Assembly (NCBI GenBank): GCA_034506315.1
Contig: JAPDPT010000003.1
Location: 10,878-74,877, forward strand
DNA length: 64,000 nt
From: Candidatus Zhuqueibacterota bacterium
GTDB lineage: Bacteria; Zhuqueibacterota; Zhuqueibacteria; Oleimicrobiales; Geothermoviventaceae
Reading direction: 5' to 3'
The notes under the pieces were generated by a model. The model saw nothing but the letters and a program-made list of their open reading frames with translations, was not told the origin of the DNA and searched no databases. Each line of letters opens with the position of its first letter. The first letter of the stretch is position 1. This document shows positions 22,730 through 42,634 of this stretch, piece after piece. The position numbers were made by a program, and so were the translations under genes.

Positions 22730-25624
22730 ATGAGCCGGAGGGTCGGGCCGCGAGCCTTCACGCTGCTGGCATGGTTCCTCGCAGGGGGCATCGCTGCATT
22801 TCCCCTTGGAGTCGGCTTAGCTCAGAGCGTGGGGAAGATCGCCGGTACCGTACGGGACGCCCAGACGGGTGAACCCCTGCCGGGTGCCAACGTGGTGATT
22901 GTGGGGACCACCATGGGTGCCGCCGCCGACGAACAGGGCGACTATTTCATTCTGAGCGTCCCGCCCGGTCGCTACGAGGTCCGAGCCTCGATGATGGGCT
23001 ACGAGTCGGTGTCGGTGGTCGATGTGATCGTGAACGCGGGCAGAACAACCCGCGTCGATTTCCGCCTCGCCCAGAGGGTGTTAGAACTGCGCGAAGTAGT
23101 CATTCAGGCCGTCCGCCCCGATGTGGAGCGTGATAAGACATCAACCAGCGCCATCCTGCGTTTCGACGAAGTGGAGATGCTACCTGGGGTTCGGAACATT
23201 GCCGACGTCATTAACCTCACAGCCGACGTGGTGGACGGTCACTTCCGCGGCGGCCGTACAGGGGAGGAGTATTACATCCTCCAGGGACTGGGCATCGTGA
23301 ACCCTCTGGACCGCTCGGCTGCCTTCCTGCCCATCATGAGCGCGGTAGAGGAGGTGGAGGTCATCACGAGCGGATTCGGCGCGCAATACGGCAATGCCCA
23401 GTCGGGCGTGGTGAACATCTCCATGAAGGAGGGGGACCCGCGAACGTGGCGGACGCGCGTGGAGCTCCGTGCGCGCGCACCGGGGCGCAAGCACTTCGGC
23501 CCCAGCGTCTACGATCCGGCGGCCAACGTTTACCTACAACTCCTGCTACTGGATGAGACCTGGTTGCGCGGGGATCCGAGCTCCGACCTCCGCCAGCCCT
23601 ACTACGGCTCAATGGGCTCAGGCCTGACCAACTATTTCAAGGGAGACACTCTTATCCAGATGGCGGTGGCTAAGGCGCTGTGGCTGCAGAGCCGCCGCGA
23701 TATCGGGCGCGATTATGGGGAAGAGATCGACCACTCGGTAGAGGTCGCCACCGGCGGGCCCATCAACAATCGCCTGCGGATGTTTGTGGCAGCGCGCGCC
23801 AATCGCGACTGGCCGACATTCCCGACCGAGAGGCCGAACGCTGAGTATCAGGCCATGGGCAACGTGGTCGCGGACCTGGGCGGTGCGGCGACCCTGCGGG
23901 TCAGCGGGGGCCTCTCCCACCAGCGAGGAAACATCTTCCCCGGCTCGAACAGCGTCAGCGGATACCAGCGTTGGCTCTGGGATCGGATCACGGGGATCCA
24001 GCAGAGAAAGAGGGTCAATGCCCAGCTCGGCATGCGCTTCACGAAGATGTTCAGCCCGAGCGCCTACCTGGAGCTCAAGCTGAATTCCCTCTTCACCAAC
24101 AATTACCAAGGCTCGACCCCTGTGCCGAACGTGTTGCCCGATACGGTAGACGTGAACTGGGTGGTAGGGACCATCGCCTTTCCGAACAACAATTCGCCGG
24201 ACCTGTTGAACTACCAGCTGGGTTACGACAATTTCCTGGACCAGAAGACGCGTACGATCTCCCTGGAAGGTTCCTTCACCGATCAGATCACAAAGAGTCA
24301 CCTTCTGAGCGCGGGTGTTCAGGTCAACACCTATCGGATCGATGTGTCCAATTTCCTGGGCATTCGGTCCACCCGCCAATTGGAGCGCTACAAGGCCCAT
24401 CCATTTGAGGCGGCCGTCTACGTTCAGGACAAGATGGAATTCGAGGGGATGATCGCCAACGTGGGCTTGCGCTACGATCTGTGGTACGCGGGCACGGAAT
24501 ACTACACTGACCTTTACACGCCGTTCGGTGACCCGGACGCCCACGGACGCTTCGACCCGTCCAAAGGCAAGACGGAGAAGGCGCCCGTCTACATGCGATT
24601 GCAGCCACGACTCGGCATTTCCTTCCCCGTCTCGGTGGGTACGGTGTTCCATCTCAATTACGGTGCCTTCATGCAGAGGCCTGCGTTCCAGTACATCGTC
24701 TCCCGGAGGCTGGGCCAGCGCCTCAACGACCCAGTGATCCTGGGCAATCCGAAGCTGGAGCCTGAGACGACCAATAGCTACGATGTGGGAGTGGTCCAAT
24801 CTCTTGGTCAGGGCTTCACCCTGGACGTGAGCGGCTACTACAAGGACGTGAAGAATCTGGTCCAGCAGGCGAACTTTATCGATCAGAGAGCCGGCTATCA
24901 GGTGAGCTCCTATTTCAACCTCGATTACGCGGATATCCGCGGCTTCCGCATCGTGCTGAGCAAGCGGAGAGGAGCCCTCACCGGCTCGATCAACTATCAG
25001 TACGGGTACGCGACGGGTAAGAGCGCAACGGCTACGGCCGCCACGCCGATTTTCAACCGGGATACGAGCAATGTGGTCACCACCGACCTCACGAACGTGC
25101 CGACGCGGGACATCATCCTGGATTTCGATCGGACGCACAATCTGGTGGTGGCTCTTTCCTACGCCTTCGGCAGGGATTTCGGCCCCCAGGTGTTGGGTAC
25201 GCGACCGCTGGCCGACCTCAACGTCTCTGCCTACTCCACGGTCCGGAGCGGCCGGCCCTATACTTCCCCGTTCGACATTCGCCTCATCAACGTGAAGCGG
25301 GCCCCCGCCGAGTACAACACGGATCTGCGGATCACCAAGATCGTGCGCAAGTTCCTCGGTGTACAGGCCCGTTTCTACTGTGAGGTCTACAACGTCTTCA
25401 ACAACAAGATCCTGAACTACGACTATCTCTTCCAGAGGCCCACGGCGACCAACCCGAACCTGCCGCTTCAGTACTACGAGAAATACCCGATTGACGACAA
25501 GCGGAATGGCGTCCGTTACTGGTGGGACAAGGGGAGGCAGGGTCCGTTTGCGATCGACCAGTCCTTCCTGATTTACGACAATCAACCCCGCTCCTTCCAG
25601 TTCGGTGTGGTATTCGAGTTCTAA
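22730..25624 (+). CDS. TonB-dependent outer-membrane receptor, SusC/RagA-like (CarbopepD_reg + plug + barrel)
   Basis: Signal peptide, then a carboxypeptidase-regulatory-like domain (GKIAGTVRDAQTGEPLPGANVVIVGT...GRYEVRASMMGYE), a plug region and a C-terminal barrel ending FGVVFEF. Confidence 0.85.
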   Translation: MSRRVGPRAFTLLAWFLAGGIAAFPLGVGLAQSVGKIAGTVRDAQTGEPLPGANVVIVGTTMGAAADEQGDYFILSVPPGRYEVRASMMGYESVSVVDVIVNAGRTTRVDFRLAQRVLELREVVIQAVRPDVERDKTSTSAILRFDEVEMLPGVRNIADVINLTADVVDGHFRGGRTGEEYYILQGLGIVNPLDRSAAFLPIMSAVEEVEVITSGFGAQYGNAQSGVVNISMKEGDPRTWRTRVELRARAPGRKHFGPSVYDPAANVYLQLLLLDETWLRGDPSSDLRQPYYGSMGSGLTNYFKGDTLIQMAVAKALWLQSRRDIGRDYGEEIDHSVEVATGGPINNRLRMFVAARANRDWPTFPTERPNAEYQAMGNVVADLGGAATLRVSGGLSHQRGNIFPGSNSVSGYQRWLWDRITGIQQRKRVNAQLGMRFTKMFSPSAYLELKLNSLFTNNYQGSTPVPNVLPDTVDVNWVVGTIAFPNNNSPDLLNYQLGYDNFLDQKTRTISLEGSFTDQITKSHLLSAGVQVNTYRIDVSNFLGIRSTRQLERYKAHPFEAAVYVQDKMEFEGMIANVGLRYDLWYAGTEYYTDLYTPFGDPDAHGRFDPSKGKTEKAPVYMRLQPRLGISFPVSVGTVFHLNYGAFMQRPAFQYIVSRRLGQRLNDPVILGNPKLEPETTNSYDVGVVQSLGQGFTLDVSGYYKDVKNLVQQANFIDQRAGYQVSSYFNLDYADIRGFRIVLSKRRGALTGSINYQYGYATGKSATATAATPIFNRDTSNVVTTDLTNVPTRDIILDFDRTHNLVVALSYAFGRDFGPQVLGTRPLADLNVSAYSTVRSGRPYTSPFDIRLINVKRAPAEYNTDLRITKIVRKFLGVQARFYCEVYNVFNNKILNYDYLFQRPTATNPNLPLQYYEKYPIDDKRNGVRYWWDKGRQGPFAIDQSFLIYDNQPRSFQFGVVFEF

Positions 25625-25636: not shown

Positions 25637-27862
25637 ATGTGGCGGAGAAGGAATGCTGCGGTTGTGCTTGTCGGTCTGCTTGCGGGGATAGCCTCGACGG
25701 CCACCAGTCAGCAGCGGGACTGGAGGGTCCACACTCGCGGCATGCTGCATCAGACGGTTTTCAATACGGGGGAGCTCGGACGGGCCTATAGCGCCGGAGG
25801 CACCATCCAGGTCGGCATGCCCTCGATGGAATGGCCCCCCTATTCCAACATGGTGCTCGACCGTCGGAACTACCCCGGTCAGCACAATTCCTTTGGAAGC
25901 GGGATCTGGTTGGCCGGTACACGTCCCAGCGGTCGGAAGTACGCCTTTTGCGGCGCAGTTTCCAACGCCAGTGGTGATCCGGTTCCGGTGGTGGGCGTCT
26001 ACAGCATCCCCATTCGGATTGAGAGGATTGAGAATTTCCCCGTGCTGGCCACTGGGGAGCTGAATCCGAACTTCAACCCCGACGAGGCGGAGGAGATCAT
26101 CATCTCCGAGTGGGACACTCCGGTGGGCGTTCGGGTGACCCGGACAAGCCGGGCGTGGAGCTATCCTGGCTACAACAACTTCATCATCTACGAGTACGAG
26201 TTCAAGAACGTGAGCCCGGACACCATTACGGACCTTTTCATCACCTTCGCCTGTTCTTTTGCTCCGTCCATGTTCGGCTACCAGCGGAACCACGGGAATT
26301 GGACCGAAAGCGCCTTCCGGGGGCAGCCCCCGGCTGGTCTCGGCGACCATTTCGCTCGCTTCGATCTGCGCCGCTGGCTGAGCTACAACCACGAGCGAGA
26401 CGGCCTTCCCGACCCGGTCTTCTTCGAGGAGTGGTCTAAGCCAGGGGACCGCGGGGGGTTGAACTCACCCCAGGCTGTGGGGATCATGGTTCTGCACTAC
26501 GACTACGAGCACCTGGCTCGGAAGGACCAGACGAAGCAGGTTTTCCTGGCCACCACAGACAGCGCCGGCATGTGGGACGAGAACGGCAAGGCCAAGCAGC
26601 CGTTCCTCCTCCGATACGAGAACGGCAACCTTCCCGAAACGAAGATCGGAACGTGGATGGATCCAACCCTGCAGCGGAAGACGGCGATCTGGCAAGGGTC
26701 AAAAGACTCCTCCATCTTCTGCGGGCAGTTCGATCCCGAGCTCTGGCCTTACTGGAAGGGGCGCACAAAAGGGTCGGTCAACCTTTCCTGGTGGCAGCCG
26801 GTGAACCGCGCCTATGGGTTCTACCCCTACATCCTCCCGCCGGGGGAGACCATCCGCTTTGCCGTAGCGGAGGTGGTCGGGTATGGTCCGGGCGTAGCGG
26901 GCGACAGCGTTTACAAGGATCTGGGCGGGAACATCCGGGCTGGCGTGGACGCGGGCTTCTACTTCCATCCAGTGCCGAGCTGGTATAAGAAGCTCCGTTA
27001 CGACTACCTGGGAACCAAGGACTACATTGGCAGCGACTATCTCCAAACCCACCCCCTACCTTGGTACGTGACGCCTGGCGTGGTCTCGATCCGGGACGTG
27101 GCGGACCGCGCCATTCAGATCTACACGGGACGCCCGCTAATGAAGTACGACACCTTGCAGTACAAGCCGGAGGAGGCCCCGCCCAGAGGCCGCTACGACA
27201 CCGTGCCGATCCCCTTCCCGGCCCCGGCGATCCGGGTCGAGAATACCCACGCCGCCGCTAACCGGATTGTGTGGGGCCCGGAGGTGGAGAACTTCACCTG
27301 TCCGAGACTGCGAGCACCCCTGAGTCATTACCTCGTGCTGCGCGCACCGCATCCCCTGGGGCCGTGGACCGTGATCGACTCGGTCGGAATTCGCGATCCT
27401 CGGTACTTCCGGGACGGTCAGTACGCGGTCCTGGATCCTTATAGCAATTTGGGGGACAACGTTGCTTACGCCGTGGTCTCGGTGGATGAGCTGGGCGGAA
27501 GAAGCGGGATGACCAACCTGACCATCCACGAGACCCAGGCGCCACCCTCGGAAAGGCTGGGCAAGGTTTACGTGGTGCCCAATCCGCTGATCGTGACGAG
27601 CGGGCTTACGGGCTCGGACCCCGCCGGGGAGATTGGTGACCGGATCCAGTTCATGGGTCTTACCAAGCGCTGCGTAATCCGTATCTTCTCGTATACCGGA
27701 CAGCTTGTAATGACCATCCGGCATGAGCGAGAGACCTACGGCAATCCGTGGTATCAACTGAGCGTGAACAATCAGCTGATCGCCTCGGGGGTGTACTACT
27801 TCGTGGTGGAAGATCTCGACACGGGCGAGCGAGCCAGCGGCAAGTTCGTGGTGATCCACTAA
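25637..27862 (+). CDS. uncharacterised secreted protein with divergent T9SS-type C-terminal sorting domain
   Basis: Signal peptide with no lipobox and an AAGGAG RBS; no recognisable catalytic or SusD-like motifs. The last ~90 aa follow the T9SS CTD pattern (VYVVPNPLIV...IRIFSYTGQLV...ASGVYYFVVED...GKFVVIH). Confidence 0.55.
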   Translation: MWRRRNAAVVLVGLLAGIASTATSQQRDWRVHTRGMLHQTVFNTGELGRAYSAGGTIQVGMPSMEWPPYSNMVLDRRNYPGQHNSFGSGIWLAGTRPSGRKYAFCGAVSNASGDPVPVVGVYSIPIRIERIENFPVLATGELNPNFNPDEAEEIIISEWDTPVGVRVTRTSRAWSYPGYNNFIIYEYEFKNVSPDTITDLFITFACSFAPSMFGYQRNHGNWTESAFRGQPPAGLGDHFARFDLRRWLSYNHERDGLPDPVFFEEWSKPGDRGGLNSPQAVGIMVLHYDYEHLARKDQTKQVFLATTDSAGMWDENGKAKQPFLLRYENGNLPETKIGTWMDPTLQRKTAIWQGSKDSSIFCGQFDPELWPYWKGRTKGSVNLSWWQPVNRAYGFYPYILPPGETIRFAVAEVVGYGPGVAGDSVYKDLGGNIRAGVDAGFYFHPVPSWYKKLRYDYLGTKDYIGSDYLQTHPLPWYVTPGVVSIRDVADRAIQIYTGRPLMKYDTLQYKPEEAPPRGRYDTVPIPFPAPAIRVENTHAAANRIVWGPEVENFTCPRLRAPLSHYLVLRAPHPLGPWTVIDSVGIRDPRYFRDGQYAVLDPYSNLGDNVAYAVVSVDELGGRSGMTNLTIHETQAPPSERLGKVYVVPNPLIVTSGLTGSDPAGEIGDRIQFMGLTKRCVIRIFSYTGQLVMTIRHERETYGNPWYQLSVNNQLIASGVYYFVVEDLDTGERASGKFVVIH

Positions 27863-27881: not shown

Positions 27882-28925
27882 ATGGGTGCTTCGGCGGAAA
27901 CCAAACGAGTGCTTGTGCTCATGGTTGCCCTGGGCCTGGTGGCGACGCACTCGGCCCTGGGGCAAAAGGTGGGTAGCACCTCCATGCAATTCCTAAAGGT
28001 GGTGCCGTCGGCGCGCGGTGCCGCCCTTGGCGAGGCCTACTCGGTCTGGGCAACAGGCGCAGAGGCCATCTTCTGGAACCCTGCGGGCCTGTCCAAGCTG
28101 GAGGGGATGGAGTTCACAACCACCTACGTCGATTGGCTCTTTGACGCTCAACAAGGGGCGCTGGCCATCGCCAAGTCCTTCCAGGGGATGGGGACGATTG
28201 GCCTCCAGCTACAGTACGCCGACTTCGGCGAGTTCGAGGAGACAAGCACGGCGCGACCGTACATCAACGACCCAGAGCACCCCGGATTTACCGGGCGCAC
28301 CTTCCGCCCGTTCGGCTGTGTCCTGGGGGCCACTTACGCTCGCGACCTCACCGACAAGTTCTCGGTGGGCATCGGGATGAAGTACGCGTACCAGTCCCTG
28401 TTCAGCGAACGCGAAGTGACTGCGATGGTCCGGCAGGGGGTCTACGAGCAGGTGAAGACCTGGGCGGGTGGGCTCCTTTTCGATTTCGGGATCCGCTACA
28501 ATACCGGTTACCGGACGATCCACATCGGCTCTTCGGTGCAGAACTTTGGTGCCAACGTGAAGTTTGCCAAGGAAGCTCACCCTGTACCGCTGCTTTTCCG
28601 CTTCGGCGTCGGTGCCGACCTGCTCGGCCCCCATGCGCTCCTTGTGCCAGGTGAAGGGGAACACCGTTTAGGGATGGTCTTCGACATCTTCCACCCCAAT
28701 GACTACGACCAGCAGATGCACTTGGGAGCTGAGTACGAGTTCCGGGGACTGCTTGCCCTGCGGGCAGGCTACAAGTTCAACTACGACTTTGACGGCCTCA
28801 CTCTTGGGGCCGGAATCAAGTACGCGGTGGACGGCCTGCGCGTGCGGCTCGACTGGAGCTACGGCGACATGGGAACCTATCTGGGCAACGTGCAACGGAT
28901 AAGCGTGGGATTGACTCTGCCATGA
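27882..28925 (+). CDS. PorV/PorQ-family outer-membrane beta-barrel protein (T9SS cargo shuttle family)
   Basis: After the signal peptide the family signature reads FLKVVPSARGAALGEAYSVWATGAEAIFWNPAGL (pattern FL.I.PdARs.AMGd..vA...dA...WNPA). The 347-aa size matches PorQ-like proteins. Confidence 0.7.
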   Translation: MGASAETKRVLVLMVALGLVATHSALGQKVGSTSMQFLKVVPSARGAALGEAYSVWATGAEAIFWNPAGLSKLEGMEFTTTYVDWLFDAQQGALAIAKSFQGMGTIGLQLQYADFGEFEETSTARPYINDPEHPGFTGRTFRPFGCVLGATYARDLTDKFSVGIGMKYAYQSLFSEREVTAMVRQGVYEQVKTWAGGLLFDFGIRYNTGYRTIHIGSSVQNFGANVKFAKEAHPVPLLFRFGVGADLLGPHALLVPGEGEHRLGMVFDIFHPNDYDQQMHLGAEYEFRGLLALRAGYKFNYDFDGLTLGAGIKYAVDGLRVRLDWSYGDMGTYLGNVQRISVGLTLP

Positions 28926-30424
28926 AGGGCGCAAGGATTCTTCTAAGCGTGGTCCTGGGACTGACGGCTCGCCTGGTGCTTGCCCAGGGATACGGTGGTC
29001 CTGTGAACTTCCAAGGTCTCGAGCACGTTCAGCTTCACTCCGCGGCCGCTCGGGGCATGGCGGGGGTGTACTCGCTGCGGCAACCCGACCTGGGATCGAT
29101 GTTCAACCAACCAGCCGCCTTGGGCCCGCTCACTTCCCTGGCTGTTTCGGCGGGAGGTTTGCGGCGCGCAGAGCGGCTTGAGCAGGAGCAGAACTACGCC
29201 CCGGTCCGTTACTACCCGAACCTAAGTCTCTTGCTGGAAAGCTTGTCCTTCAAGATTCCGGATCCCAATCCAGAGGTTCCGGGCTTTACACCTGCGGACA
29301 CGGTGCAGAGGCCTTACGATCGCATCGGGCCCAACTGGTCTCGCACGGATCACGGTTACAAGCCGCTGCACTTGCTCGTCGCGTCTCCGATTCTTCGGGG
29401 TGGCTTCAAACTGGTAGCTGGGTTGGGGGCCGTGACGTACGCCGATCTGGATTACTATTACCAGAACAACAACGTCCTTTCGCCTTCCATTCTCTCGCAG
29501 CGGCCTTTCCCGACGCTGCGTCCGACGGACGACAACCCGCTGGCTGTGGACTGGTACCAGACGGTGCGCTCGCGCGAGGGCGCCGTCTATGCCTATGGCG
29601 CAAGCCTCGTGGGCTGGGTGGAAAAGCTCCACTTGTCCGTTGGCGTGAGCGCGGCCGTCTTGCGCGGCACCAGCGACGATCTGGAGCGAGATCTCGGGAG
29701 GGGAAAGCTCACCTTCTTCTCCAATGCGTTCCGGGCTGACTCGGTCTACTGGTGGGTCCAGAGGACCGGTACGTCCAAGTTCCGGGGTTACGACGTGACC
29801 GTCGGCACCGCTCTCGTGGCGAAACACGTCGGCCTTGGCGTTTCCGTCAAGCCACCCTCCGAGATCCGGCGGGAATACTCGGGGAGGATCCAGACGCCTG
29901 GCGCCGGGATTCTGCGTGGAGCTGATCTCTTCGCTGGCGAGTTGGCCGCGGGCAATAGGTCCGTGGAAAAGGAGGATCGCCTCAAGCTGCCCTGGCGAGG
30001 GGCGGTAACGATGTCCCTCGCCCCCAAGCAGTGGCTGACGCTAGGCTTCGAATACGAGTTCAGACCCTATGGGTCCGCGCGCTACGTGGACCCGCAGGGG
30101 GCTGAGAGCAGGCCATGGCTTGGGAGTTCCCCGTTCCGGGCCGGCTTCGAGTGGAGCCCACGCCCCTGGCTTAGCCTGCGCGGGGGGATGCGCAATGAGG
30201 CCGAGGTTTTTGAACCGGAGGGGAATCATCTCCCGGGAGAACCGGTGGTCTACACGGCGTACTCGGCAGGTGTAGGCTTGAGGTGGGCGAACTGGCGGCT
30301 GGACTTGGCGGTCGAAAGCTGGGAGCGCAAGTACGAGGACATTTGGTCCAGCGCGATCAGCAAGAACCGGCAGCGCGTTCTGGCAGTGCTGGGCCAGCTC
30401 TCGTACGCGATGGGGGGCTGGTGA
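28922..30424 (+). CDS. second PorV/PorQ-like outer-membrane beta-barrel paralog
   Basis: ATGA overlap with the upstream gene and a signal peptide. A degenerate signature reads HSAAARGMAGVYSLRQPDLGSMFNQPAAL; the rest has beta-strand-rich alternating hydrophobic periodicity. Confidence 0.5.
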   Translation: MKGARILLSVVLGLTARLVLAQGYGGPVNFQGLEHVQLHSAAARGMAGVYSLRQPDLGSMFNQPAALGPLTSLAVSAGGLRRAERLEQEQNYAPVRYYPNLSLLLESLSFKIPDPNPEVPGFTPADTVQRPYDRIGPNWSRTDHGYKPLHLLVASPILRGGFKLVAGLGAVTYADLDYYYQNNNVLSPSILSQRPFPTLRPTDDNPLAVDWYQTVRSREGAVYAYGASLVGWVEKLHLSVGVSAAVLRGTSDDLERDLGRGKLTFFSNAFRADSVYWWVQRTGTSKFRGYDVTVGTALVAKHVGLGVSVKPPSEIRREYSGRIQTPGAGILRGADLFAGELAAGNRSVEKEDRLKLPWRGAVTMSLAPKQWLTLGFEYEFRPYGSARYVDPQGAESRPWLGSSPFRAGFEWSPRPWLSLRGGMRNEAEVFEPEGNHLPGEPVVYTAYSAGVGLRWANWRLDLAVESWERKYEDIWSSAISKNRQRVLAVLGQLSYAMGGW

Positions 30425-35100: not shown

Positions 35101-37126
35101 CTCGATGTCGAATGCCACCACCCAGAACTCAAACCCGACTCTTGGGAACGCGAAGTTCGTGTTTGCCAAGACGGGTCTGCAGCGACTGGTTCTGGGCGCG
35201 GGCAACAACATCCAGAATCTGCCGATCGAGGTGAGTTCCGGCACCACCTTGGACGTAGGCACCAGTGTGCTGGCCGGACAGGGGATGTTTGCTCTTAATG
35301 CGGGCGCAACGCTGGCGATCGCCCATCCAGCTGGCGTAGCCGGGTTCCTCGGCGCGCTCCCGGCCAACGTCGTGTCGCTAAGTGAGGCAGCCAACTTCGT
35401 GTTCAACGGGACGGAGCACCAGGTTACGAGCACCCTGATGCCCTCGGTAGTAAATGACCTGACGATTGCCAACTTGGCGGGTGTAGAGCTGTCACAAGCG
35501 ACGACCATCAATGGGGTTCTGCACCTGGTGGCGGGTGAGTTCGACAACACTGTTCCATTCGCCCTTGGACCCAACGGACGCATTTCGTACGAGGGCGGAA
35601 CCCTCAAGGTGCCGCTTGTCGCGTCCGAATACCGGTCGGTCACAACGGGGAACTGGAGCTCCGCCTCGACCTGGGAAGGTCTTGTGGGCGACCGTTGGCT
35701 GGCGGTTCCCGCGGCGCCCGTGGGCACCGAGAAGATCACCGTGCGGGGTTCGGACACGGTCAAGGTGGACGTGCCGCTGGAGTTCCGCGGCTATCTGAAG
35801 GTGGAGGAATCCGGTGTAGTTACGGTCACCACGGGCTCGCTTGCGTTCCTGGAAGGCAGCGTCTACGAACACGCGCGGGACGCCGGGATCCTGCCCTTAG
35901 CAGAGTGGCGTCCAGGCTCGACGCTGCTGATGACGGGCACGGTGCAGGACGCGCCCGCTAACCGCAACCAGAACTTCTACCATGTAGTGTTCAATACCCC
36001 CAATCTCACACGTAATCGGGACATGGGTTGGGACGACGTGACGATCGGTGGGGATATCCGCGTGATCAGCACAGGCCAGGGTCGTTGGTACTTAACCACA
36101 GCCGCCGCCAACGATACGGCGATCGTTACGCTCATGGGCGATGTGATCGTGGAGGGCGGCGCCTTCTCGGTCCAGGGTACGAGCAACGCTTTGACCACAT
36201 TCATCGTCCATCACTACGGGAATATCCGGGTAACGGGGGGCAACTTCTCGATATCGAGGGGTTCTCAGGGTAACGGAAGCGGAACCACCACCTGGTACCT
36301 CTACCAAGGTGACTTCTCGATGTCGAATGCCACGACGCAGAACTCGAACCCGACCCCTGGGAACGCGAAGTTTGTCTTCGCGAAAGCAGGGGTGCAGAAG
36401 CTGGAGCTGGGAGAAGGCAATACGATCCTGAAGCTCCCCATCGAAGTGAGACCCGGTACGACGCTGGAAGTGGGTCAGAGCGTGCTGGCGGGCAATGACA
36501 TCTTCGTACTGTCCGAAGGAGCGACGCTGGCCCTCACTCACCCCGACGGGGTAGCTGGCTTCCTGGGCAGCGTGCCCAACGAGTTGGTTACTCTTAGCCC
36601 GGCGGCTAACTTCTGGTTCCACGGGTCGCTGCGCCAGGTGACGAGCACCCGGATGCCCAACGTAGTCAATGACCTCATTATCGACAACCCCGCGGGCGTT
36701 GTTCTTTCGCAGCCGACAACGATCAACGGTGTGCTGCGCCTGGTCGCGGGTGAGTGCGATAATACCATTCCGTTCACACTCGGCCCCAACGGGAGGATCT
36801 CCTACGAGGGTGGTACCCTGAAGGTCCCGGTAGGCGTGGCTGGCCGCGACGCTGCAGTGCCTGCCCAGTTCGCACTGCATCAGAACTATCCTAACCCCTT
36901 CAACGCCAACACGACCATTCGGTACGAGCTTCCGACCACCGCGCATGTAGTCCTCAAGATTTACGATGTGACAGGGCGGGAGATTGCGGAGCTCGTCAAC
37001 GCCAAGCAAGGCCCCGGGATCTTCACCGTGACCTGGAGTGCGGACGGGTTGCCGAGCGGCATTTACTACTGTCGGATGATGGCCGGTGAATTTGTGGCGA
37101 TGCGCAAGCTGGTCTTGATGAAGTGA
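32114..37126 (+). CDS. giant secreted repeat protein (about 1670 aa): four tandem ~410-aa modules plus T9SS C-terminal domain
   Basis: ATG with a GGAGGTG RBS and a signal peptide. There are four repeats of the module [EYRSV.TGNWS..STWE ... YEHARDGG..P...W.PGSTLL.TG.V..APANRNQNF.HVVFNTPNLT.N..MGWD.VTIGGDIRV.STG.GRWY..TAA..DTA..TV.GDV.VEGG.FSV.GT.NA.T.F.VHHYG.V.VTGGNFSI.RGSQGNGSG.T.WYLY.GDFSMSNATTQNSNPT.GNAKFVFAK]. The CTD reads HQNYPNPFNANTTIRYEL...GIYYCRMMAGEFVAMRKLVLMK. Confidence 0.85.
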   Translation: MKARVPAVWAALSVFFGFCALGLAQQVGDYRSVANGNWSDPATWEVFDGTQWVAATLAPTGAESITVDGTDTVKVDVPVEIRGYLRVKDTGVVMVTETGSLTFGNGGTYEHARNGGSVPTATWLEGSTALFTGITTTAPANRGQDYWNVVLNTPGLTANLDLNLAGKTISGNVTVVNTGTGRWRLVGGTSGTVTIMGDLIVQAGQFETQGTSSSTQVDVHHYGSVRVTGGEFSISRGSQGGATGTGYTRWYLHQGDFFMSNATTRNSNPWRATFVFAKVGGVQNLVLENVTFLAGGLPVKVDSGVTLNLGTSVLGGDGSFVLSPGATLRTALPGGLDQALATTGSKSLSKQASYTFDGVEAQVPGALLPDSVATLTVANPEGVTFTDTLWAHQLEVNAGSLMRIDSLGVVTVDSGGVAGAIWCKGVLTASDTLYFMSGSVYDHARDAGSLPNGRWAEGSTLLLSGTVQNAPSNRNQNFHHVVFNTPNLTKNLSMGWDGVTIGGDIRVVSTGLGRWYMSTAAVGDTAVITVLGDVIVENGNFSVHGTGNAQTVFLVHHYGDVVVTGGNFSIARGSQGNGSGKTIWYLYEGDFWMSNATTQNSNPTPGNAKFVFVKPGVQRLVLGAVNNIQNLPIEVCPGTTLDVGNSVLAGTGIFVVREGATLATAHTGGVAGFLGTVAASGVALSKSANYVFNGTEPQVTSTSLPDTVSDLVINNPAGVALSRETTINGVLRLMSGEFDNTVPFTLGPTGRISFEGGSLKVPLVASEYRSVATGNWSQASTWEAFLFGRWMAAPMAPTGSEQITIRNADTVRVDMPVVVRGYVKIQDSGVLVVEGGSLTFADSSYYEHARDGGILPSAVWEPGSTLLLTGIVENAPANRNQNFHHVVFNTPNLTKNLNMGWDGVTIGGDIRVVSTGLGRWYMSTAAVGDTAVITVLGDVVVEGGHFSVHGTGNAQTVFWVHHYGDVVVTGGNFSIARGSQGNGSGKTIWYLYEGDFSMSNATTQNSNPTLGNAKFVFAKTGLQRLVLGAGNNIQNLPIEVSSGTTLDVGTSVLAGQGMFALNAGATLAIAHPAGVAGFLGALPANVVSLSEAANFVFNGTEHQVTSTLMPSVVNDLTIANLAGVELSQATTINGVLHLVAGEFDNTVPFALGPNGRISYEGGTLKVPLVASEYRSVTTGNWSSASTWEGLVGDRWLAVPAAPVGTEKITVRGSDTVKVDVPLEFRGYLKVEESGVVTVTTGSLAFLEGSVYEHARDAGILPLAEWRPGSTLLMTGTVQDAPANRNQNFYHVVFNTPNLTRNRDMGWDDVTIGGDIRVISTGQGRWYLTTAAANDTAIVTLMGDVIVEGGAFSVQGTSNALTTFIVHHYGNIRVTGGNFSISRGSQGNGSGTTTWYLYQGDFSMSNATTQNSNPTPGNAKFVFAKAGVQKLELGEGNTILKLPIEVRPGTTLEVGQSVLAGNDIFVLSEGATLALTHPDGVAGFLGSVPNELVTLSPAANFWFHGSLRQVTSTRMPNVVNDLIIDNPAGVVLSQPTTINGVLRLVAGECDNTIPFTLGPNGRISYEGGTLKVPVGVAGRDAAVPAQFALHQNYPNPFNANTTIRYELPTTAHVVLKIYDVTGREIAELVNAKQGPGIFTVTWSADGLPSGIYYCRMMAGEFVAMRKLVLMK
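32180..36860 (+). repeat. intragenic tandem DNA repeats, period about 1.21 kb
   Basis: One diverged copy plus three highly similar copies. For example 33523-33720 vs 34742-34940, and 33781-34080 vs 34988-35290, are about 90% identical at nucleotide level. Anchor codons (YEHARD) sit at about 32440, 33437, 34650 and 35864. Confidence 0.8.
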
Positions 37127-37218: not shown

Positions 37219-37506
37219 TGGCTTGGGCCAGCGTGATAGGCGGTGGGGCTTAGCCTCCGAAGCTGACTGGACAGGGGTGTCACACAGCGCGGTTCGCCAC
37301 GGGAGAGTTTTTCCGAAATTCACGCTCTCTGAGCTGCTCTGGGTGGAAAAGGTGCCACCGCAGGTCCGGTGCGGCGTGGCGAGGGGTGTACCGGGGGTTC
37401 AGGAGGTCGCCATTCGTGGAGTTATTTTGCCGCTGAAATGATTGTCGTTGCCTGGAATCCCCTCTCGGGCAATTTAATACCCGTGGGAAAGGCAACGGGG
37501 TTCTCG

Positions 37507-37902
37507 GTGCAGAAGCGCAGTTACAGGGCGGTGATCGTAGACGACGAGTGGCTCATTCGTTCCGAACTGCGGATGCTTCTGGGAAATTTCCCGGAGATCT
37601 CCGTTGTGGGCGAGGCGGCCACCGTGTACGAAGCGGCAGAAGTCATCCGCCGGACGCGTCCTGATGTCGTCTTTCTCGATATCCAGATGCCTGGTGAGTC
37701 AGGGCTCCGTCTGCTCGACATGGTGGAACGCGATTTTGAGGTGGTTTTTGTTACTGCTTATCCGCAGTACCGGGAAGAGGCCATGAAGTTTCGCCCGAAG
37801 GCCTATCTCCTCAAGCCGATCCGGGTTGGAGATCTGTCACAGGTGATCGCACAACTGGCAAAAGGCAAGGAGAGCCATGAGGATCCAGGGAGTCAAAGGT
37901 AG
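37507..37902 (+). CDS. stand-alone receiver domain protein (LytTR-type receiver lacking the LytTR output domain)
   Basis: The receiver sequence (RAVIVDDEWLIRSELRMLLGNFPEISVVGEAATVYEAAEVIRRTRPDVVFLDIQMPGESGL...) aligns nearly residue-for-residue with the receiver of the LytTR RR at 18400. Start chosen at an in-frame GTG by analogy (longest ORF begins 37369). The 3' end overlaps the next gene by 26 nt. Confidence 0.55.
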   Translation: MQKRSYRAVIVDDEWLIRSELRMLLGNFPEISVVGEAATVYEAAEVIRRTRPDVVFLDIQMPGESGLRLLDMVERDFEVVFVTAYPQYREEAMKFRPKAYLLKPIRVGDLSQVIAQLAKGKESHEDPGSQR

Positions 37903-40891
37903 CCTTGCGGTGTTGGTCGGGCTCGGGCTTCTGCCTTGCCTGGGTCTGGCCCAGGGTATCATCCGGGGCACGGTGAGAGACTCCGTCACTGCAGAACCCC
38001 TTGTGGGGGCCAACGTGTTTCTGGTGGGCACCGGCTTCGGGAGCTCCACCAACCTGGAAGGGGAGTATGTGATTCCCCGGGTTCCGGAGGGTTCGTACAC
38101 GCTGCGGGTGTCGTTTATCGGCTACAAGCGCAAGGACATCCCGGTCCGAGTGGAGGCGGGGCGCGTTCTCCGGATCGATGCGAAGCTTGCGCCCGATGTG
38201 CTCCAAGGTCAACCGGTTGTGATCACCGTGCAGGCCATCGGGCAGGCCGCGGCCATCAACCGACAGATCACGGCCAACACGATTATGAATGTAGTCTCTG
38301 AGGAACGAATCCAAGAGCTTCCGGATGCCAATGCGGCCGAGTCCCTAGGCCGCCTGCCGGGAGTGTCAATCCGGCGGTCAGGCGGTGAGGCCAATAAGAT
38401 TGTCCTGCGCGGACTGAGCGACAAGTACTCCGCGGTGATGGTGGACGGAGTCCGGATCGCTCCGACCGACGCCGACGCCCGCGGTGTGGATCTCAGCACG
38501 ATCTCGCAGGGGTCATTGGCGGGGATTGAGCTGTACAAGGCCCTTACCCCCGATAAGGACGCGGACGCGATTGCGGGCAGCGTGAACTTTGTGACCAAGC
38601 GAGCTCCGATGCCGCGCCTCTTGCGCTTGGACGGCAGGGGTTCCTACAATCATCTGAAGCGCACCTACGACCAGTACGACTGGGTCCTCCGCTACGGTCA
38701 GCGCTTCTTCGGCAACGTCTTCGGCGCGCAGCTGTCCGCCAACGTGGAGAAGCGGGACCGCAGCAAGGAGAATATGAGCCTGGAATATGACCTACGAGGC
38801 ATTGCCGGCGGCACCGATTACGAAATCACCAACTTCACCCTGAACTACACGGATGAGGTTCGCTACCGCCAGGGCATCAGCCTGCTGTTTGACCTGGACA
38901 CCCCGGACGGGGGGACCATCCGACTGAACAACATCTTTAATCGCACGGAACGGAAATTCGTGGAATACCAGCGCAACTATCCCACGACCGGCGAAGAGAT
39001 GTTCTATTCTGCCCGGGATCGGGAGCAGGAGATTCGCACACACGTGGCGTCCCTGACCGGCGACAACTACCTTTGGGGCCTCAATGCCAATTGGGGCCTC
39101 GCATACTCCCGATCCCGTTCCAGCTTCCCCTTTGATTACGAGATCGATTTCACCGAGCCCTCGACTACCGATCCGCAAGGGAATCCGTTGTCCCACATGC
39201 GTCCCGTTCCGGATTCCATTCTCCACGGTCCGCCGGAGCTCATCATCCCCTACGCCCTGAACAACTTCCGTATGGCCTACCTGTACACCGCCTATTTCCG
39301 GGGGGAAAAGGCGAATGATGTGGAGCGGACGGTGTTCTTGAACCTTTCCCGCCAGTACAGTTTGGACAGCCGTCTCTCCGGGGAGGTGAAGTTCGGTGCC
39401 AAGTATCGAGATCGGGCCCGCGACCGCTCTCGATCCGAGTTGTTTTCCCCCTACTACAACGAAGCTTTTGCGGAGTACGTCAAGAAGGATGGCCAGGTCG
39501 TCCCGAAGAACTTCGTGGGGACCCGCTTCGCGCAGCTTGAGAAGACCGGAAATATGATCCTGATGACCAATTTCCTCGACCGCCAGCCGCCCCGGCGCAA
39601 CCTGTTCGGCAAGTACAGTCTTTATCCTCTGTTCAACCGGGATGCGATCCGCCAGTGGTGGGAGCTGAATCGGAATGGTTATCAGGATCCGCAGGGCAGG
39701 AATCCGGAGTACGAGCGCAATCTGGAACCCGATGCCCTTTACTACGACATTACCGAACGCATCACTTCGGCCTATCTGATGCACACGCTGCGTTACGGCC
39801 AGAAGTTGGTGCTTATCACCGGCGTGAGAATGGAGCAGGAGAACAACGATTACCTCTCGCGGAATTCCGTCGGCACGCTGAGCGGCTTCCCTGTGCCGAC
39901 AGGGATGATTCGGGATACGACGGCCACGCACATCGAGACCGTATGGCTTCCGAACGTTCACCTCACCTACCGGCCGGCAGGCTTCGTCGGGATTCGGTTG
40001 GCCGCCTACAAGGCGCTTGCGCGGCCGGACTTCAACTACCGCCTGGCCAGTGTGGTGACAAAGGCCCGGAGCACCTTCTTCCCGGGAAACAACCTCCACG
40101 TCGGCAACACTGGTCTGAAAGCGGCGAAGGCGTGGAATTTTGAGGTGAATACGTCCTTTTACGGAAACAAGATCGGTCTTCTCTCGGTCTCTGCCTTCTA
40201 CAAAGATATCCGGGACATGTTCCATTACATCGACGGCCTTCCTTTCGTTGGGCAACGATCCCTCGACAGCCTCGGGATCAAGGTGCGGAATCCCTTCGGC
40301 AACAACGAGTTCGTCCTCTATTATCCCTACAACTCCACGAAGCCGACCGTCGTGAAAGGGATCGAGGTTGAGCATCAGACCAACCTGCGCTTTCTGCCGG
40401 GGCTTCTGAGTAATCTGGTGCTCAACTACAATTTCTCGGTCGTCCGCTCCTATACCTATATCCCCACGGTGCGAGTGGAGACGTATCAGGTCATCGTGCC
40501 TCCTTTCCCCTATCCGATTAAGCGCACGCGCTACGTCCACGAGGAAAGGAAGCAGAAGCTGGAGGGTCAGCCGGAGTTCTTCGGGAATCTTGCCGTGGGG
40601 TACGACATCGGCGGGTTCTCGATTCGGGTTTCTGTGTTCCATCAGGGCCGTTTTAACCGCACCTTCTCCTCGGACGCGCGCAGTGACCTCGTGCAAAACG
40701 CATTTACCCGCTGGGACGTGGCGGTCAAACAGCAGATCACGCCGCACGTGGCGCTGATCGTGAATCTGAACAATATCACCAACACCCGCGAGGGGACGTC
40801 GGTTCTCAACAGGGTGCAAAAATGGGATCTGCTGAATACAGATGAGATTTACGGATTCACCGCGGATGCCGGCCTCCGCTTCAGCTTTTAG
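37877..40891 (+). CDS. TonB-dependent outer-membrane receptor, SusC/RagA-like (second copy)
   Basis: AAGGAGAG RBS and a signal peptide. CarbopepD_reg domain (GIIRGTVRDSVTAEPLVGANVFLVGT...GSYTLRVSFIGYK), plug and barrel ending LRFSF. Confidence 0.85.
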   Translation: MRIQGVKGSLAVLVGLGLLPCLGLAQGIIRGTVRDSVTAEPLVGANVFLVGTGFGSSTNLEGEYVIPRVPEGSYTLRVSFIGYKRKDIPVRVEAGRVLRIDAKLAPDVLQGQPVVITVQAIGQAAAINRQITANTIMNVVSEERIQELPDANAAESLGRLPGVSIRRSGGEANKIVLRGLSDKYSAVMVDGVRIAPTDADARGVDLSTISQGSLAGIELYKALTPDKDADAIAGSVNFVTKRAPMPRLLRLDGRGSYNHLKRTYDQYDWVLRYGQRFFGNVFGAQLSANVEKRDRSKENMSLEYDLRGIAGGTDYEITNFTLNYTDEVRYRQGISLLFDLDTPDGGTIRLNNIFNRTERKFVEYQRNYPTTGEEMFYSARDREQEIRTHVASLTGDNYLWGLNANWGLAYSRSRSSFPFDYEIDFTEPSTTDPQGNPLSHMRPVPDSILHGPPELIIPYALNNFRMAYLYTAYFRGEKANDVERTVFLNLSRQYSLDSRLSGEVKFGAKYRDRARDRSRSELFSPYYNEAFAEYVKKDGQVVPKNFVGTRFAQLEKTGNMILMTNFLDRQPPRRNLFGKYSLYPLFNRDAIRQWWELNRNGYQDPQGRNPEYERNLEPDALYYDITERITSAYLMHTLRYGQKLVLITGVRMEQENNDYLSRNSVGTLSGFPVPTGMIRDTTATHIETVWLPNVHLTYRPAGFVGIRLAAYKALARPDFNYRLASVVTKARSTFFPGNNLHVGNTGLKAAKAWNFEVNTSFYGNKIGLLSVSAFYKDIRDMFHYIDGLPFVGQRSLDSLGIKVRNPFGNNEFVLYYPYNSTKPTVVKGIEVEHQTNLRFLPGLLSNLVLNYNFSVVRSYTYIPTVRVETYQVIVPPFPYPIKRTRYVHEERKQKLEGQPEFFGNLAVGYDIGGFSIRVSVFHQGRFNRTFSSDARSDLVQNAFTRWDVAVKQQITPHVALIVNLNNITNTREGTSVLNRVQKWDLLNTDEIYGFTADAGLRFSF

Positions 40892-40946: not shown

Positions 40947-40981
40947 CAGGTCGTGGAGCTTTACAGCAAAGGGAGGTCGTC

Positions 40982-42634
40982 ATGAAGAGGTGGAAGCATT
41001 GCTACGGGATGGTGGGGATGGCGCTGCTCTTCCCTGCCTGGCTTGCGGCGCAAGATGAGCTCATCATCGAGCCGCCGACCGACCCGAACACGTTCCTCAA
41101 CCGGCAGATCGAAGAGGATGTGAACCGGCCGCCGGGTCGGGTTTACGTCCTCAGGCGCAACGGCATCTACCTGTGGAATGCCTTCCTGACGAACAATGGA
41201 TGGGTGCTGCGGATCAAAGCGGAGGATGGACCAGGCCAGAAGCCCGTCATTTACCTCATCACCGACCCGGCAACGGGCACCTTCCCCACCCACTTCATCG
41301 AGATGGGTGAGGACGTGTACTTGAAAGACATCATCCTCGTCGGTTTCATTGAGTCGTTGCCGGACCAGATCGCGAACAATCCGCCGCGGCTGATCCGTTC
41401 GCGTGCGGCTGGCTTTGACCTAATTCTCGATGGGTGCATCCTGACCCAGTCGCGAGGCGAGCACATCCGACTGGAGCAGGCGACGCGGGTGGTGAAGATC
41501 ACCAACTGCATCTTTGCCAACATGGGCGACCTCGGCACCTCCAACCTCGGCGCCGGCAAGCCGATCGATTTCCGCAATGCGTCCTGCGACTCCGCAATCT
41601 TCATCAACAACACCTTTGTGAACTTCCACGACCGGGTTGTTCGCCACCGGGCCAGTGTGGCGGCGATCAACTACTTCATTTTCGACCACAATACGGTGGT
41701 CAACTCTCTGGGCTTCCACGGGACGCTGGCCCTCGGTTGGCTCGGTCGAGAATGCCGCATCACCAATAATCTGTTCGTGGATCACTTCATTGCCGGCGCG
41801 GACACCGACCGAACGCGGCAGGCGGAGTTTGAGGAACCCGGCGAGATGGACCCGCGCAACGGCTTGGGTCGGATGGCATGGGTCCTCTCTGTGCCGAACG
41901 ACACAACTCACTGGGTCGTGAAGGGCAACTACTACACCGTCAGCCCGGAGGTTCAGGCGTTCTATGACCGGCACGCAGCCGAAGGGGTCCTTGGGGAAGG
42001 TCCGCCCTTGACCCACCACATTTGCAGGAGGCTCGGGGCCGATTCGTCCATGGCGTTCATCAAGGAGGCGATCGAGCTGGCCAACCGGCCACGGCCGATG
42101 GTCAATATGGCGGAATGGTACCGGGATCCGAACGGAGGGAACAAGACCAAGAATACGCCGACCCCGAAGTGGGTCCGTGAGCTGCACGACTACGACCGAC
42201 GTCCCTGGCAGTATTTTGCCGACACGCTTGATTGCAGCTACTCCACGTCCACAGCCGCCTACACCGGAGCCGTGGGTGGCTTCCCGGCAGGCGACCTGAA
42301 CTGGTTCCCTGACAAGAAGAGCCAGTGGGAGGCCTGGGTTACGGCGGTCGAGCAGAAGGCGGAAGTCCCTGCTGAGTTCGGCCTATTGCAGAACTATCCG
42401 AACCCGTTCAACCCGACCACCAAGATCCGCTTCCGCCTGGATCGGCCGGAACAGGTCACCCTGTCGGTCTACGATCTCCAGGGCCGTCGGGTGCGCACCT
42501 TGGTGTCGGGTCGTCTGGAGGCTGGCAGCCACGAGGTGACCTTCGACGCCTCCGGTCTGCCGAGCGGCGTGTACGTCTACAAGCTGTCTGCCGGCTCTCG
42601 GGAAACCGTGCGCAAGATGGTCCTGGTGCGGTAA
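40982..42634 (+). CDS. secreted right-handed parallel beta-helix protein (candidate polysaccharide lyase/hydrolase) with T9SS C-terminal domain
   Basis: Signal peptide. Parallel beta-helix repeats (ITNCIFANMG...AIFINNTFVNFHDRVV...ITNNLFVDH). The T9SS CTD reads LQNYPNPFNPTTKIRFRL...GVYVYKLSAGSRETVRKMVLVR. Confidence 0.75.
   Translation: MKRWKHCYGMVGMALLFPAWLAAQDELIIEPPTDPNTFLNRQIEEDVNRPPGRVYVLRRNGIYLWNAFLTNNGWVLRIKAEDGPGQKPVIYLITDPATGTFPTHFIEMGEDVYLKDIILVGFIESLPDQIANNPPRLIRSRAAGFDLILDGCILTQSRGEHIRLEQATRVVKITNCIFANMGDLGTSNLGAGKPIDFRNASCDSAIFINNTFVNFHDRVVRHRASVAAINYFIFDHNTVVNSLGFHGTLALGWLGRECRITNNLFVDHFIAGADTDRTRQAEFEEPGEMDPRNGLGRMAWVLSVPNDTTHWVVKGNYYTVSPEVQAFYDRHAAEGVLGEGPPLTHHICRRLGADSSMAFIKEAIELANRPRPMVNMAEWYRDPNGGNKTKNTPTPKWVRELHDYDRRPWQYFADTLDCSYSTSTAAYTGAVGGFPAGDLNWFPDKKSQWEAWVTAVEQKAEVPAEFGLLQNYPNPFNPTTKIRFRLDRPEQVTLSVYDLQGRRVRTLVSGRLEAGSHEVTFDASGLPSGVYVYKLSAGSRETVRKMVLVR

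Follow-up and report, generated by a model that had tools for sequence, protein, structure and literature searches.

In the Bacteroidia, polysaccharide-utilization loci (PULs) pair SusC, a TonB-dependent transporter (TBDT), with SusD, a lipoprotein that captures the glycan and hands it over. TonB-dependent receptors of the Xanthomonas/Caulobacter class (model TIGR01782) import glycans without a SusD, within carbohydrate-utilization (CUT) loci. To our knowledge, nearly all that is understood about glycan import by TBDTs comes from SusC/SusD in the Bacteroidia and from a small number of proteobacterial receptors. We analyzed a 64-kb stretch of DNA (the window) from a Candidatus Zhuqueibacterota bacterium. 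It contains a region of about 20 kb in which a TBDT gene is followed by a gene for a secreted protein of 741 amino acids (aa), here called p741, and by genes for two outer-membrane barrels, the first of which belongs to the PorV/PorQ family. On balance, we think that this region probably encodes the components for capture and import, at the outer membrane, of a polysaccharide-utilization system that is independent of SusC/SusD, free of lipoproteins and organized in two operons.

A further precedent comes from the secretion system of type IX (T9SS). PorU and PorZ keep their C-terminal domains (CTDs) and stay bound to a barrel, PorV in the first case and PorQ in the second; it has been proposed that PorV-like barrels shield the CTDs of their cognate proteins from cleavage (PMC10202324). 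Below we describe the cassette and its relatives in other genomes, and then weigh what it may do.

The conserved four-gene cassette

The cassette consists of the first four genes listed here. The fifth line is a second receptor, further downstream, which is described together with the first.

22730..25624, + strand: TBDR1, a divergent protein of the TBDT superfamily, 964 aa (CarboxypepD_reg 74.9 bits; OMP_b-brl_3 47.2 bits, cutoff 27)
25637..27862, + strand: p741, a secreted surface protein with a signal peptide and no lipobox (predicted supersandwich, Fn3-like domain and PorZ-like T9SS CTD)
27882..28925, + strand: PorV/PorQ-family barrel, 347 aa (NF033709 205.6 bits, cutoff 90)
28922..30424, + strand: p500, a second barrel, distantly FadL/Toluene_X-like and translationally coupled to the PorV-family gene (PF03349 matches in homologs; distant profile similarity)
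37877..40891, + strand: TBDR2, a Xanthomonas/Caulobacter-type TonB-dependent receptor with an N-terminal CarboxypepD_reg domain (TIGR01782 314.6 bits, cutoff 310)

We found that the order of the four genes is conserved. When genomes of the GTDB, one for each species, were scanned by pattern, at least 219 loci were found to encode a relative of p741, and 80 of these were retrieved (numbered with the prefix L below). Genes were placed by tblastn mapping, and the denominators that follow count the loci with enough flanking DNA. TBDR1 was directly upstream of the p741 homolog in 69 of 74 loci; four of the five exceptions were split matches, not absences. The PorV-family barrel was directly downstream of the p741 homolog in 72/73 loci, and p500 came next after that barrel in every locus that could be scored (69/69). 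A gene of the p520 type (see below) followed p500 in 41 of 66. The order holds down to 42% identity in p741, in genomes labeled KSB1/Zhuqueibacter, Calditrichia, Ignavibacteria, Bacteroidota and Rhodothermales; all of the relatives are metagenome-assembled genomes (MAGs). Because the order is kept in about 70 species-level genomes, the arrangement is not due to chance. A first-pass annotation of this DNA had proposed a comparison of synteny with related genomes, and the arrangement came through that comparison well.

The components differ in how strongly they are conserved. Among the closer loci conservation is highest for TBDR1 and p741 (63-92% identity, versus 43-60% for p500). Over all loci, the median identity is 53-55% for TBDR1, p741 and the PorV-family barrel and 40% for p500. 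These levels fit a tight complex. Some single genomes contain pairs of paralogous cassettes (L029/L037, L061/L062 and L072/L084). The arrangement also extends to distant p741-like proteins that lie between a TBDT with a CarboxypepD_reg domain and a PorV-like gene. Both neighbors are present in L086 and L089, and on the short contig L088 the neighbor present is the TBDT. L089 has no p500, and adjoins GH106, FucU, a GH5/42-like gene and a protein with CBM9 and a CTD.

One retrieved locus has an orphan copy. L037, the second locus of MAG MFD05942.bin.1.467, encodes a p741 homolog (57% identity) that has neither TBDR1 nor the PorV-family barrel as a neighbor. It is the sole such case among the retrieved loci and might bear on whether p741 can act alone.

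By the models we used, neither receptor is a member of the SusC/RagA family. The first-pass annotation had described two SusC-like receptors and had started from the oddity of a SusC without a SusD. That these genes belong to the TonB-dependent receptor superfamily stands, with TBDR1 as a divergent member. The likeness to SusC does not: against TIGR04056 (cutoff 368.25 bits) TBDR1 scored 56.0 and TBDR2 66.7, and the model aligned only with the N-terminal ~110-170 residues of each receptor, that is, with the carboxypeptidase-regulatory-like domain. This domain, of the N-terminal-extension (NTE) type, is present in both (PF13620/PF13715, 61-75 bits) and is insufficient for membership in the SusC family because it is common to many TBDTs that are not SusC. 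TBDR2 also has a Plug domain (PF07715, 55.5 bits, cutoff 23.9). Since both receptors fail TIGR04056 and TBDR2 falls in the SusD-free TIGR01782 class, the absence of a SusD at this locus is not itself anomalous, and the premise of the earlier description falls away. The absence as such was correctly noted. There was no SusD/RagB-family match in Pfam or NCBIfam among the open reading frames (ORFs) of the locus or the other large ORFs scanned in the window, and none of the cassette proteins has a lipobox cysteine.

TBDR1 is the more divergent receptor. With the ATG at 22730 as its best start, the protein has a signal peptide (MSRRVGPRAFTLLAWFLAGGIAAFPLGVGLAQS). It has partial matches to many models of TBDT barrels and plugs, including the barrel region of a TonB-hemin model (E 3e-15) and short NCBIfam alignments over plug positions. 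Reading the protein by eye, we found a TonB-box-like motif, 'ELREVVIQA', and a plug-like motif, 'EEVEVITSGFGAQYGNAQSGVVNISMKEG'. The TBDTs of more distant cassettes carry Plug and TonB_dep_Rec domains, canonical in L086 and L089, with a weak Plug in L088.

The gene for p741 begins after a spacer of 12 nt. Searches of the full domain library and of the PDB gave no Pfam family, no family model of carbohydrate-active enzymes (CAZymes) and no PDB sequence relative for p741; the only matches in the PDB were to CTDs or to FlgD-Ig. Its structure was modeled with AlphaFold2. When the alignment was shallow (63 sequences, none below 69% identity), the model was unusable (pLDDT, the predicted local-distance difference test, 59). 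With representatives of 35-55% identity included in the alignment, the model had a pLDDT of 87.4 and a predicted TM-score (pTM) of 0.87. In it, residues ~28-520 form a beta-rich, galactose-mutarotase-like supersandwich, residues ~530-635 an Fn3-like domain and residues ~645-741 an Ig-like domain at the C-terminus. Thus p741 is confidently predicted to have a supersandwich fold of the carbohydrate-binding type. An exhaustive search found 1152 relatives at E <= 1e-3, among them about 25 full-length clusters at 50% identity, and a wider set of proteins of 600-800 aa shares the N- and C-terminal parts of p741. The best 120 homologs are 70-92% identical to it and come from MAGs labeled KSB1, Calditrichia, Ignavibacteria and Bacteroidota. 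Many Arg, His, Glu, Trp and Tyr residues are invariant in an alignment that spans 35-90% identity. Compared with SusD, p741 is predicted to be mostly beta, has no lipobox and matches no SusD model; on its modeled fold, it may act like SusD but is not a member of the SusD/RagB family.

The CTD of p741 appears to be real yet atypical. The first-pass annotation had assigned T9SS CTDs to p741 and to three proteins further downstream (p520, p1675 and p550). The latter three exceed the thresholds of the library models (23 bits for TIGR04183 and 27 bits for PF18962). For p741, which has no match to TIGR04183 or PF18962 at E <= 0.01, the assignment comes by other routes. We built a hidden Markov model (HMM) from 128 CTDs of related loci, excluding the p741 family. 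This model matched residues 678-725 of p741 (E 1.8e-6, 20 bits) and the C-terminal end of all 78 p741-family members (78/78, median E 5e-6), versus 118-137 bits for p520, p1675 and p550. Every family member thus matches the model, and we call the domain atypical because the copy in the window scores far below the cargo proteins. In addition, the sole NCBIfam match of p741 is to the PorZ C-terminus (E 4.9e-6), a CTD-like C-terminal domain is seen in the predicted structure, and the PNP, G.Y and K motif residues are invariant.

Two barrels of the PorV/PorQ family had been proposed downstream of p741, and one of them keeps that assignment. The barrel at 27882..28925 is well above the family cutoff and below the equivalog cutoffs for both PorV (76.8 versus 250 bits) and PorQ (90.1 versus 220), and its family profile matches PorV of F. 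johnsoniae (6h3i_F) at E 1e-16. It thus classifies as a member of the PorV/PorQ family that is neither PorV nor PorQ proper. The second barrel, p500, has no match in Pfam or NCBIfam, NF033709 included. Many of its homologs carry a precomputed match to PF03349 (Toluene_X/FadL), and there is a match to an 'outer membrane protein' in the PDB (9hiv_F, E 7e-5). An hhalign comparison of p500 with the PorV-family alignment reached a probability of 75% (E 2.4e-5), confined to 89 columns at the N-terminus that include the F.NPA.L motif. It is best described as distantly FadL- and PorV-like. The coupling claimed for the two genes was borne out: they overlap by ATGA at 28922-28925 (ctgccATGAaggg).

The window encodes one more protein of this family, at 62513-63556 (- strand), which scored 168.4 bits against the PorQ model NF033711 (cutoff 220) and 124.6 against NF033709 (cutoff 90). 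The 5' end of this ORF overlaps the tRNA-Thr gene at 63520-63593 (- strand), so translation must in fact start further downstream. The product is probably the housekeeping barrel for T9SS attachment. With this distinct PorQ-like gene at another site in the window, and only 25% identity between the two barrels, the cassette barrel is taken to be an additional, dedicated paralog.

Substrate context, operons and neighboring genes

The genes around related cassettes point to their substrates. The neighborhoods of L001-L003 encode GH28, a Pel9A-like lyase with a CTD, GH88/105, KduI, KduD, UxaC, KdgK and KdgA. In a Pfam tally of 111 ORFs flanking the closer loci we counted GH88/105 (19 times), GH28 (15), Pect-lyase_RHGA (12), LacI-type regulators (10) and pectinesterase (6), together with GDSL esterases, KduI, Pel9A, UxaC and DUF4861. 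By locus, GH28 was found in 40/85, GH88 in 31/85 and Pel9A in 27/85; the Pel9A count was made without the CTD, since the shared CTD had inflated it to 66 loci.

The flanks of distant cassettes likewise contain GH28 (15 times), and in addition SDR (7), alginate lyase (5), MFS (5), heparinase II/III (4) and GntR (4), a context of the alginate type. Where the p741 paralog has 42-47% identity (L061, L064, L065, L068, L071 and others), alginate lyase, heparinase II/III-like, SDR (KduD-like), MFS and GntR genes replace the pectinases. Judged from gene neighborhoods, this suggests that the cassette has diversified by substrate, into pectin-type, alginate-type and rhamnose/fucose-type contexts.

The remaining features of the locus are as follows.

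18364..19137, + strand: LytTR-type response regulator (Pfam Response_reg 90.3 bits; LytTR 68.2 bits)
19191..22454, - strand: periplasmic beta-propeller/Y_Y_Y sensor histidine kinase of the LytS type, 1087 aa (Reg_prop x12, 268.7 bits; Y_Y_Y 72.1; His_kinase PF06580 85)
30493..32055, + strand: p520, single-module T9SS type-A cargo of an unrecognized family of ~400-aa modules (TIGR04183 31.3 bits)
32099..37126, + strand: p1675, four tandem p520-type modules and a T9SS type-A CTD (TIGR04183 40.1 bits)
37183-37211, + strand: intrinsic-terminator-like hairpin (13-bp stem with 8 GC, 3-nt loop, T-rich tail)
37369..37902, + strand: receiver-only response regulator (LytR/BtsR-type receiver with no DNA-binding domain), first gene of operon 2 (Response_reg 67.2 bits, residues 55-160)
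40982..42634, + strand: p550, T9SS type-A cargo of an uncharacterized family (TIGR04183 46.8 bits)

The nine ORFs called from TBDR1 through p550 in the first-pass annotation are all present on the + strand where it had placed them. It had treated the 20 kb as one locus. Because there is a strong terminator-like hairpin at 37183-37211, directly 3' of the 1675-aa gene, we divide the 20 kb into two transcription units. Unit 1 (22730-37126) contains six genes: TBDR1, p741, the PorV-family barrel, p500, p520 and p1675. Unit 2 (37369-42634) contains the receiver-only regulator, TBDR2 and p550.

The CTDs of p520, p1675 and p550 also pass PF18962 (29.2, 31.4 and 43.4 bits, respectively). Outside the CTD, p520 has no family in Pfam or NCBIfam, and searches of the PDB by sequence with p520 and p550 gave nothing beyond CTD or FlgD-Ig matches. 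The reading of p520 and p1675 as single-module and four-module CTD proteins of an unrecognized family is correct. BLASTP of p520 against p1675 placed modules at 13-392, 422-768, 772-1173 and 1177-1675, with 47-59% identity, and counterparts of p1675 in related loci have 750, 753, 1091 and 1667 aa, consistent with two to four modules. With their ordinary CTDs and variable module numbers, p520 and p1675 are best read as putative surface-attached proteins for capture or adhesion. The idea that the p520 module is a Pel9A-like beta-helix was rejected (hhalign probability 2%).

For p550, the earlier label 'beta-helix' was not confirmed. The match to Beta_helix PF13229 is below threshold (E 0.019, 15 bits versus 25.9), and only one of the 120 best homologs carries that domain. 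We also rejected p550 as a Pel9A-like pectate lyase: only the CTD is common to p550 and the L001 enzyme, and hhalign gave a probability of only 57%, on an N-terminal stretch. By the genes that surround it, TBDR2 together with p550 is an independently conserved pair in pectin loci. A TBDT of ~1000 aa followed by a p550-type gene is found upstream of the cassette in L007, L009, L018, L021, L025 and L045. The pair stands alone in L090-L092, with GH88, pectinesterase/DUF4861, Pel9A, GH28, PL10, LacI and UxaC. In L008, an ORF of the p550 type (514-3627, + strand, ~1037 aa) has two tandem modules (tblastn matches 634-1980 and 1999-3624), and it would appear that the p550 family can multiply modules like the p520 family.

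Several regulators accompany the two operons. The sensor kinase gene is divergent from the cassette, and the LytTR gene lies beyond it, convergent with the sensor gene. The kinase is a probable glycan sensor, and the LytTR regulator its probable cognate. This type of sensor was found upstream of the cassette in other loci too, and the LytTR gene is kept in the matching position in two relatives with 92% identity (L005 and L050). The receiver-only regulator aligns with BtsR positions 3-122 of 238 only, and its true start is probably downstream of 37369, at about 37439-37508. Homologous small receiver genes lie ahead of TBDT genes in L009 (78-464), L010 (6538-6870) and L015 (6541-6873). A receiver-only protein of the LytR/BtsR type as first gene upstream of either type of TBDT suggests a conserved regulatory accessory of such operons.

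The DNA comes from a high-GC bacterium of the FCB (Fibrobacteres-Chlorobi-Bacteroidetes) group and not from one of the classical Bacteroidia, as had been concluded before. The GC content of the window is ~0.59-0.64, and ONB23_01480, from a MAG of candidate division KSB1, matches p500 with 100% identity.

The rest of the window was also surveyed. Signaling genes are densely packed at 10093-18287 (+ strand): one for a receiver-GGDEF protein, one for a HAMP-PAS histidine kinase, two for receiver-PAS hybrid kinases and one for a sigma-54 activator. This run is also found upstream of the cassette in L005. A further sigma-54 activator is at 47444-48820. The sole CAZyme of the window is a complete GH38 alpha-mannosidase (61-3516, + strand, 1151 aa), 19 kb from the cassette, with an unusually long extension of ~345 residues ahead of the GH38 N-domain. 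Two ORFs have no match in Pfam or NCBIfam. One (42383-43975, - strand, 530 aa) overlaps the 3' end of p550 and a cysK-like gene on the opposite strand; with these overlaps and no family match it was treated as spurious, probably an artefact of high GC. The other (48989-50230, + strand, 413 aa) may be a real orphan gene.

Proposed function and its alternatives

From the gene content, the domains, the synteny, the CAZyme context of relatives and the confidently predicted fold of p741, we infer a substrate, a set of physical complexes, retention of a CTD and a direction of transport. The substrate is most likely pectin or another uronate-rich glycan, going by the gene neighborhoods of relatives. 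According to this proposal, Sec would carry p741 across the inner membrane and the T9SS would carry it across the outer membrane. The PorZ-like CTD of p741 would escape cleavage and remain attached to the cognate PorV-family barrel, whose gene adjoins that of p741, and the supersandwich would thereby be tethered at the cell surface beside TBDR1. There p741 would bind, and possibly also cut, an oligosaccharide and hand it on to TBDR1. p520 and p1675, with their ordinary CTDs, would be surface-attached capture or adhesion proteins, and the Y_Y_Y sensor kinase and LytTR regulator would probably control expression.

The first-pass annotation had pictured T9SS-anchored proteins in the role of SusD, served by PorV-type shuttles of their own. 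Synteny, CAZyme context and the fold of p741 uphold the partnership and a PorV-type barrel dedicated to it. The shuttle does not carry over; by analogy with PorU and PorZ, the PorV-family barrel is probably a dedicated anchor for p741 in preference to a shuttle. Whether p741 is in fact retained on that barrel by its CTD is close to an even call, and if anything we lean slightly the other way. The proposal also has a broader form. The cassette might represent a widespread class, in FCB lineages outside the Bacteroidia such as KSB1/Zhuqueibacterota, Calditrichota, Ignavibacteria and MAGs labeled Rhodothermales, of four-protein complexes made of a TBDT, a supersandwich lid delivered by the T9SS, a PorV-family anchor and a FadL-like barrel, in which p741 is held permanently by its uncleaved CTD. 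We offer this form tentatively and would not wager on it. If it were true, the T9SS and PorV-like barrels would replace the surface export of lipoproteins in assembling a SusCD-like system, and PorV-family barrels would be general protein anchors outside secretion itself.

Several observations weigh against the proposed import system. For TBDR1, no Pfam Plug was found even at E 10, and its family profile, searched against the PDB, gave the N-terminal domain and a marginal match to the PhuR barrel only; TonB-dependent import by TBDR1 is thus an assumption that draws on weak motif evidence. p500 belongs to the core even in loci where p741 is the lone CTD protein, and the proposal leaves its role unexplained. 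By tblastn, the window has no GH28, GH88, Pel9A, Kdu or Uxa genes, and therefore the substrate for the present genome is assigned by orthology only; PL and CE genes are likewise absent from the surroundings of the cassette. The 22 kb retrieved of L005 (92% identity) has no pectin-degradation enzymes either. The operational definition of a PUL, CAZymes within the locus, fits most of the related loci and not this window. Contact of p741 with TBDR1 or with the PorV-family barrel is hypothetical, and so is retention of its CTD. Finally, the 63-92% identity of p741 and TBDR1 among closer loci with several phylum-level labels may be more in keeping with an enzyme or a tight complex than with a protein that only binds.

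The last point leads to the possibility that p741 is mainly an enzyme, that is, a new polysaccharide lyase or hydrolase that acts on pectic or uronate glycans at the surface, with the TBDT importing its products. The conservation of the best 120 homologs and the invariant charged and aromatic residues are unusual for a surface glycan binder, and no other CAZyme lies beside the cassette in the window. However, p741 matches no Pfam CAZyme model and no PDB chain by sequence, and its strict adjacency to and co-conservation with the TBDT suit a partner in a complex equally well. We consider a mainly enzymatic p741 unlikely. A different possibility is that the cassette exports and attaches proteins: the barrels, possibly with an Oar-like TBDR1, would secrete and anchor the p520 and p1675 adhesins, on the models of SprF-SprB and of Oar, which exports PopC in Myxococcus. 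Barrels of the PorP/SprF type are encoded beside the adhesins that they handle (PMC10202324), and Oar, a TBDT of the CarboxypepD_reg type, is reported to be needed for protein secretion in Myxococcus (PMC6434023). The atypical plug of TBDR1 and the nature of p1675, a large, repetitive surface protein with a variable number of modules, would also be accounted for. But the four-gene core is kept even if neither a p520-type protein nor any other CTD protein comes after it, several loci having p741 as their sole CTD protein. The consistent context of CAZymes and sugar catabolism suits nutrient uptake, and the distant cassettes have TBDTs with canonical Plug and TonB_dep_Rec domains. An export module is, in our view, quite improbable.

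It is also conceivable that there is no functional unit here at all, and that ordinary SusD-free TonB-dependent receptors adjoin abundant T9SS cargo genes by coincidence. Both receptors fail the SusC model, the class of TBDR2 acts without SusD, and CTD proteins are very common (220 matches in 85 loci). Coincidence is hard to reconcile, however, with the many genomes and several phylum labels over which the order is kept, with the tight spacing and the overlapping stop and start codons, or with the separate conservation of the TBDR2-p550 pair. Spread of a single recently transferred element is countered by identities of 42-92% that broadly track the taxon labels. We regard coincidence as very improbable indeed. 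We still favor the reading in which the cassette captures and imports a glycan, with p741 as the surface partner of TBDR1.

Comparison with described systems

A TBDT glycan cassette with a T9SS-secreted partner and PorV- and FadL-type barrels is apparently an undescribed design. Full-text literature searches, which included genome papers on KSB1/Zhuqueibacterota, found no description of it, although their coverage is incomplete and absence there is not proof. If the proposal is right, this would be a third design for glycan import: a TBDT, a T9SS-exported protein with a carbohydrate-binding fold and cassette-specific barrels of the PorV and FadL types, with no lipoproteins. It would explain the capture of pectin, alginate and similar polymers by SusD-poor lineages, and would give PorV-family paralogs outside the Bacteroidota a concrete function as dedicated anchors. 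In addition, it would define several large families (p741, p500, the p520 module and p550) in which Pfam recognizes nothing beyond the CTD, useful for annotation and for the prediction of CAZymes and PULs, and would provide a set of markers for locating such loci in metagenomes. Several poorly studied FCB lineages carry the cassette, and they occur in abundance in sediments, hot springs and soils.

Oar of Myxococcus xanthus resembles TBDR1 in domain plan: an N-terminal carboxypeptidase-regulatory-like domain is followed by a large TBDT-like barrel. Oar is reported to show that such proteins can work in the direction of export (PMC6434023). The context of the cassette is CAZymes and sugar catabolism, in contrast to protease secretion and development for Oar.

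The pairs PorQ-PorZ and PorV-PorU of Porphyromonas gingivalis are like the cassette in having a PorV/PorQ-family barrel gene beside a protein whose CTD is not ordinary and, in the case of p741, resembles that of PorZ most. Type-B cargo has cognate barrels too, of the SprF/PorP type. PorQ-PorZ and PorV-PorU are also the precedent for uncleaved CTDs as permanent anchors on such barrels (PMC10202324). In contrast to PorV and PorQ, the cassette barrel is below both equivalog cutoffs; p741 has neither beta-propellers nor a peptidase domain; and the two genes belong to a putative nutrient-uptake operon instead of to secretion machinery.

TBDR2, which passes TIGR01782, connects the second operon to the Xanthomonas/Caulobacter TBDTs and their CUT loci. 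Unlike those receptors, it bears an N-terminal CarboxypepD_reg domain and has p550 as a conserved, T9SS-secreted downstream partner. We know of no T9SS partners in proteobacterial TBDT loci.

A close functional parallel is with the SusC/SusD PULs of Bacteroidota, in which SusCD forms 'pedal-bin' complexes and utilisomes. In both, the gene directly upstream of that for the surface partner codes for a TBDT that has an N-terminal CarboxypepD_reg-like domain, genes for more surface proteins follow the pair, CAZymes and sugar catabolism adjoin (in relatives of the cassette), and there is a periplasmic sensor of the Y_Y_Y type. Both have been duplicated and diversified for different glycans. The differences lie in the components. 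The cassette receptors fail TIGR04056. The partner is predicted to combine a beta-supersandwich, an Fn3-like domain and a CTD, whereas SusD is an alpha-helical protein of tetratricopeptide repeats. There is no lipoprotein, and delivery to the surface would go through the T9SS CTD. The core has two extra barrels of the FadL superfamily, and regulation would involve two proteins, a LytS-type kinase and a LytTR regulator, instead of a hybrid two-component protein with AraC output. Taken by these sequence features, the cassette would function like the core of a SusCD-type PUL, yet it falls outside that family.

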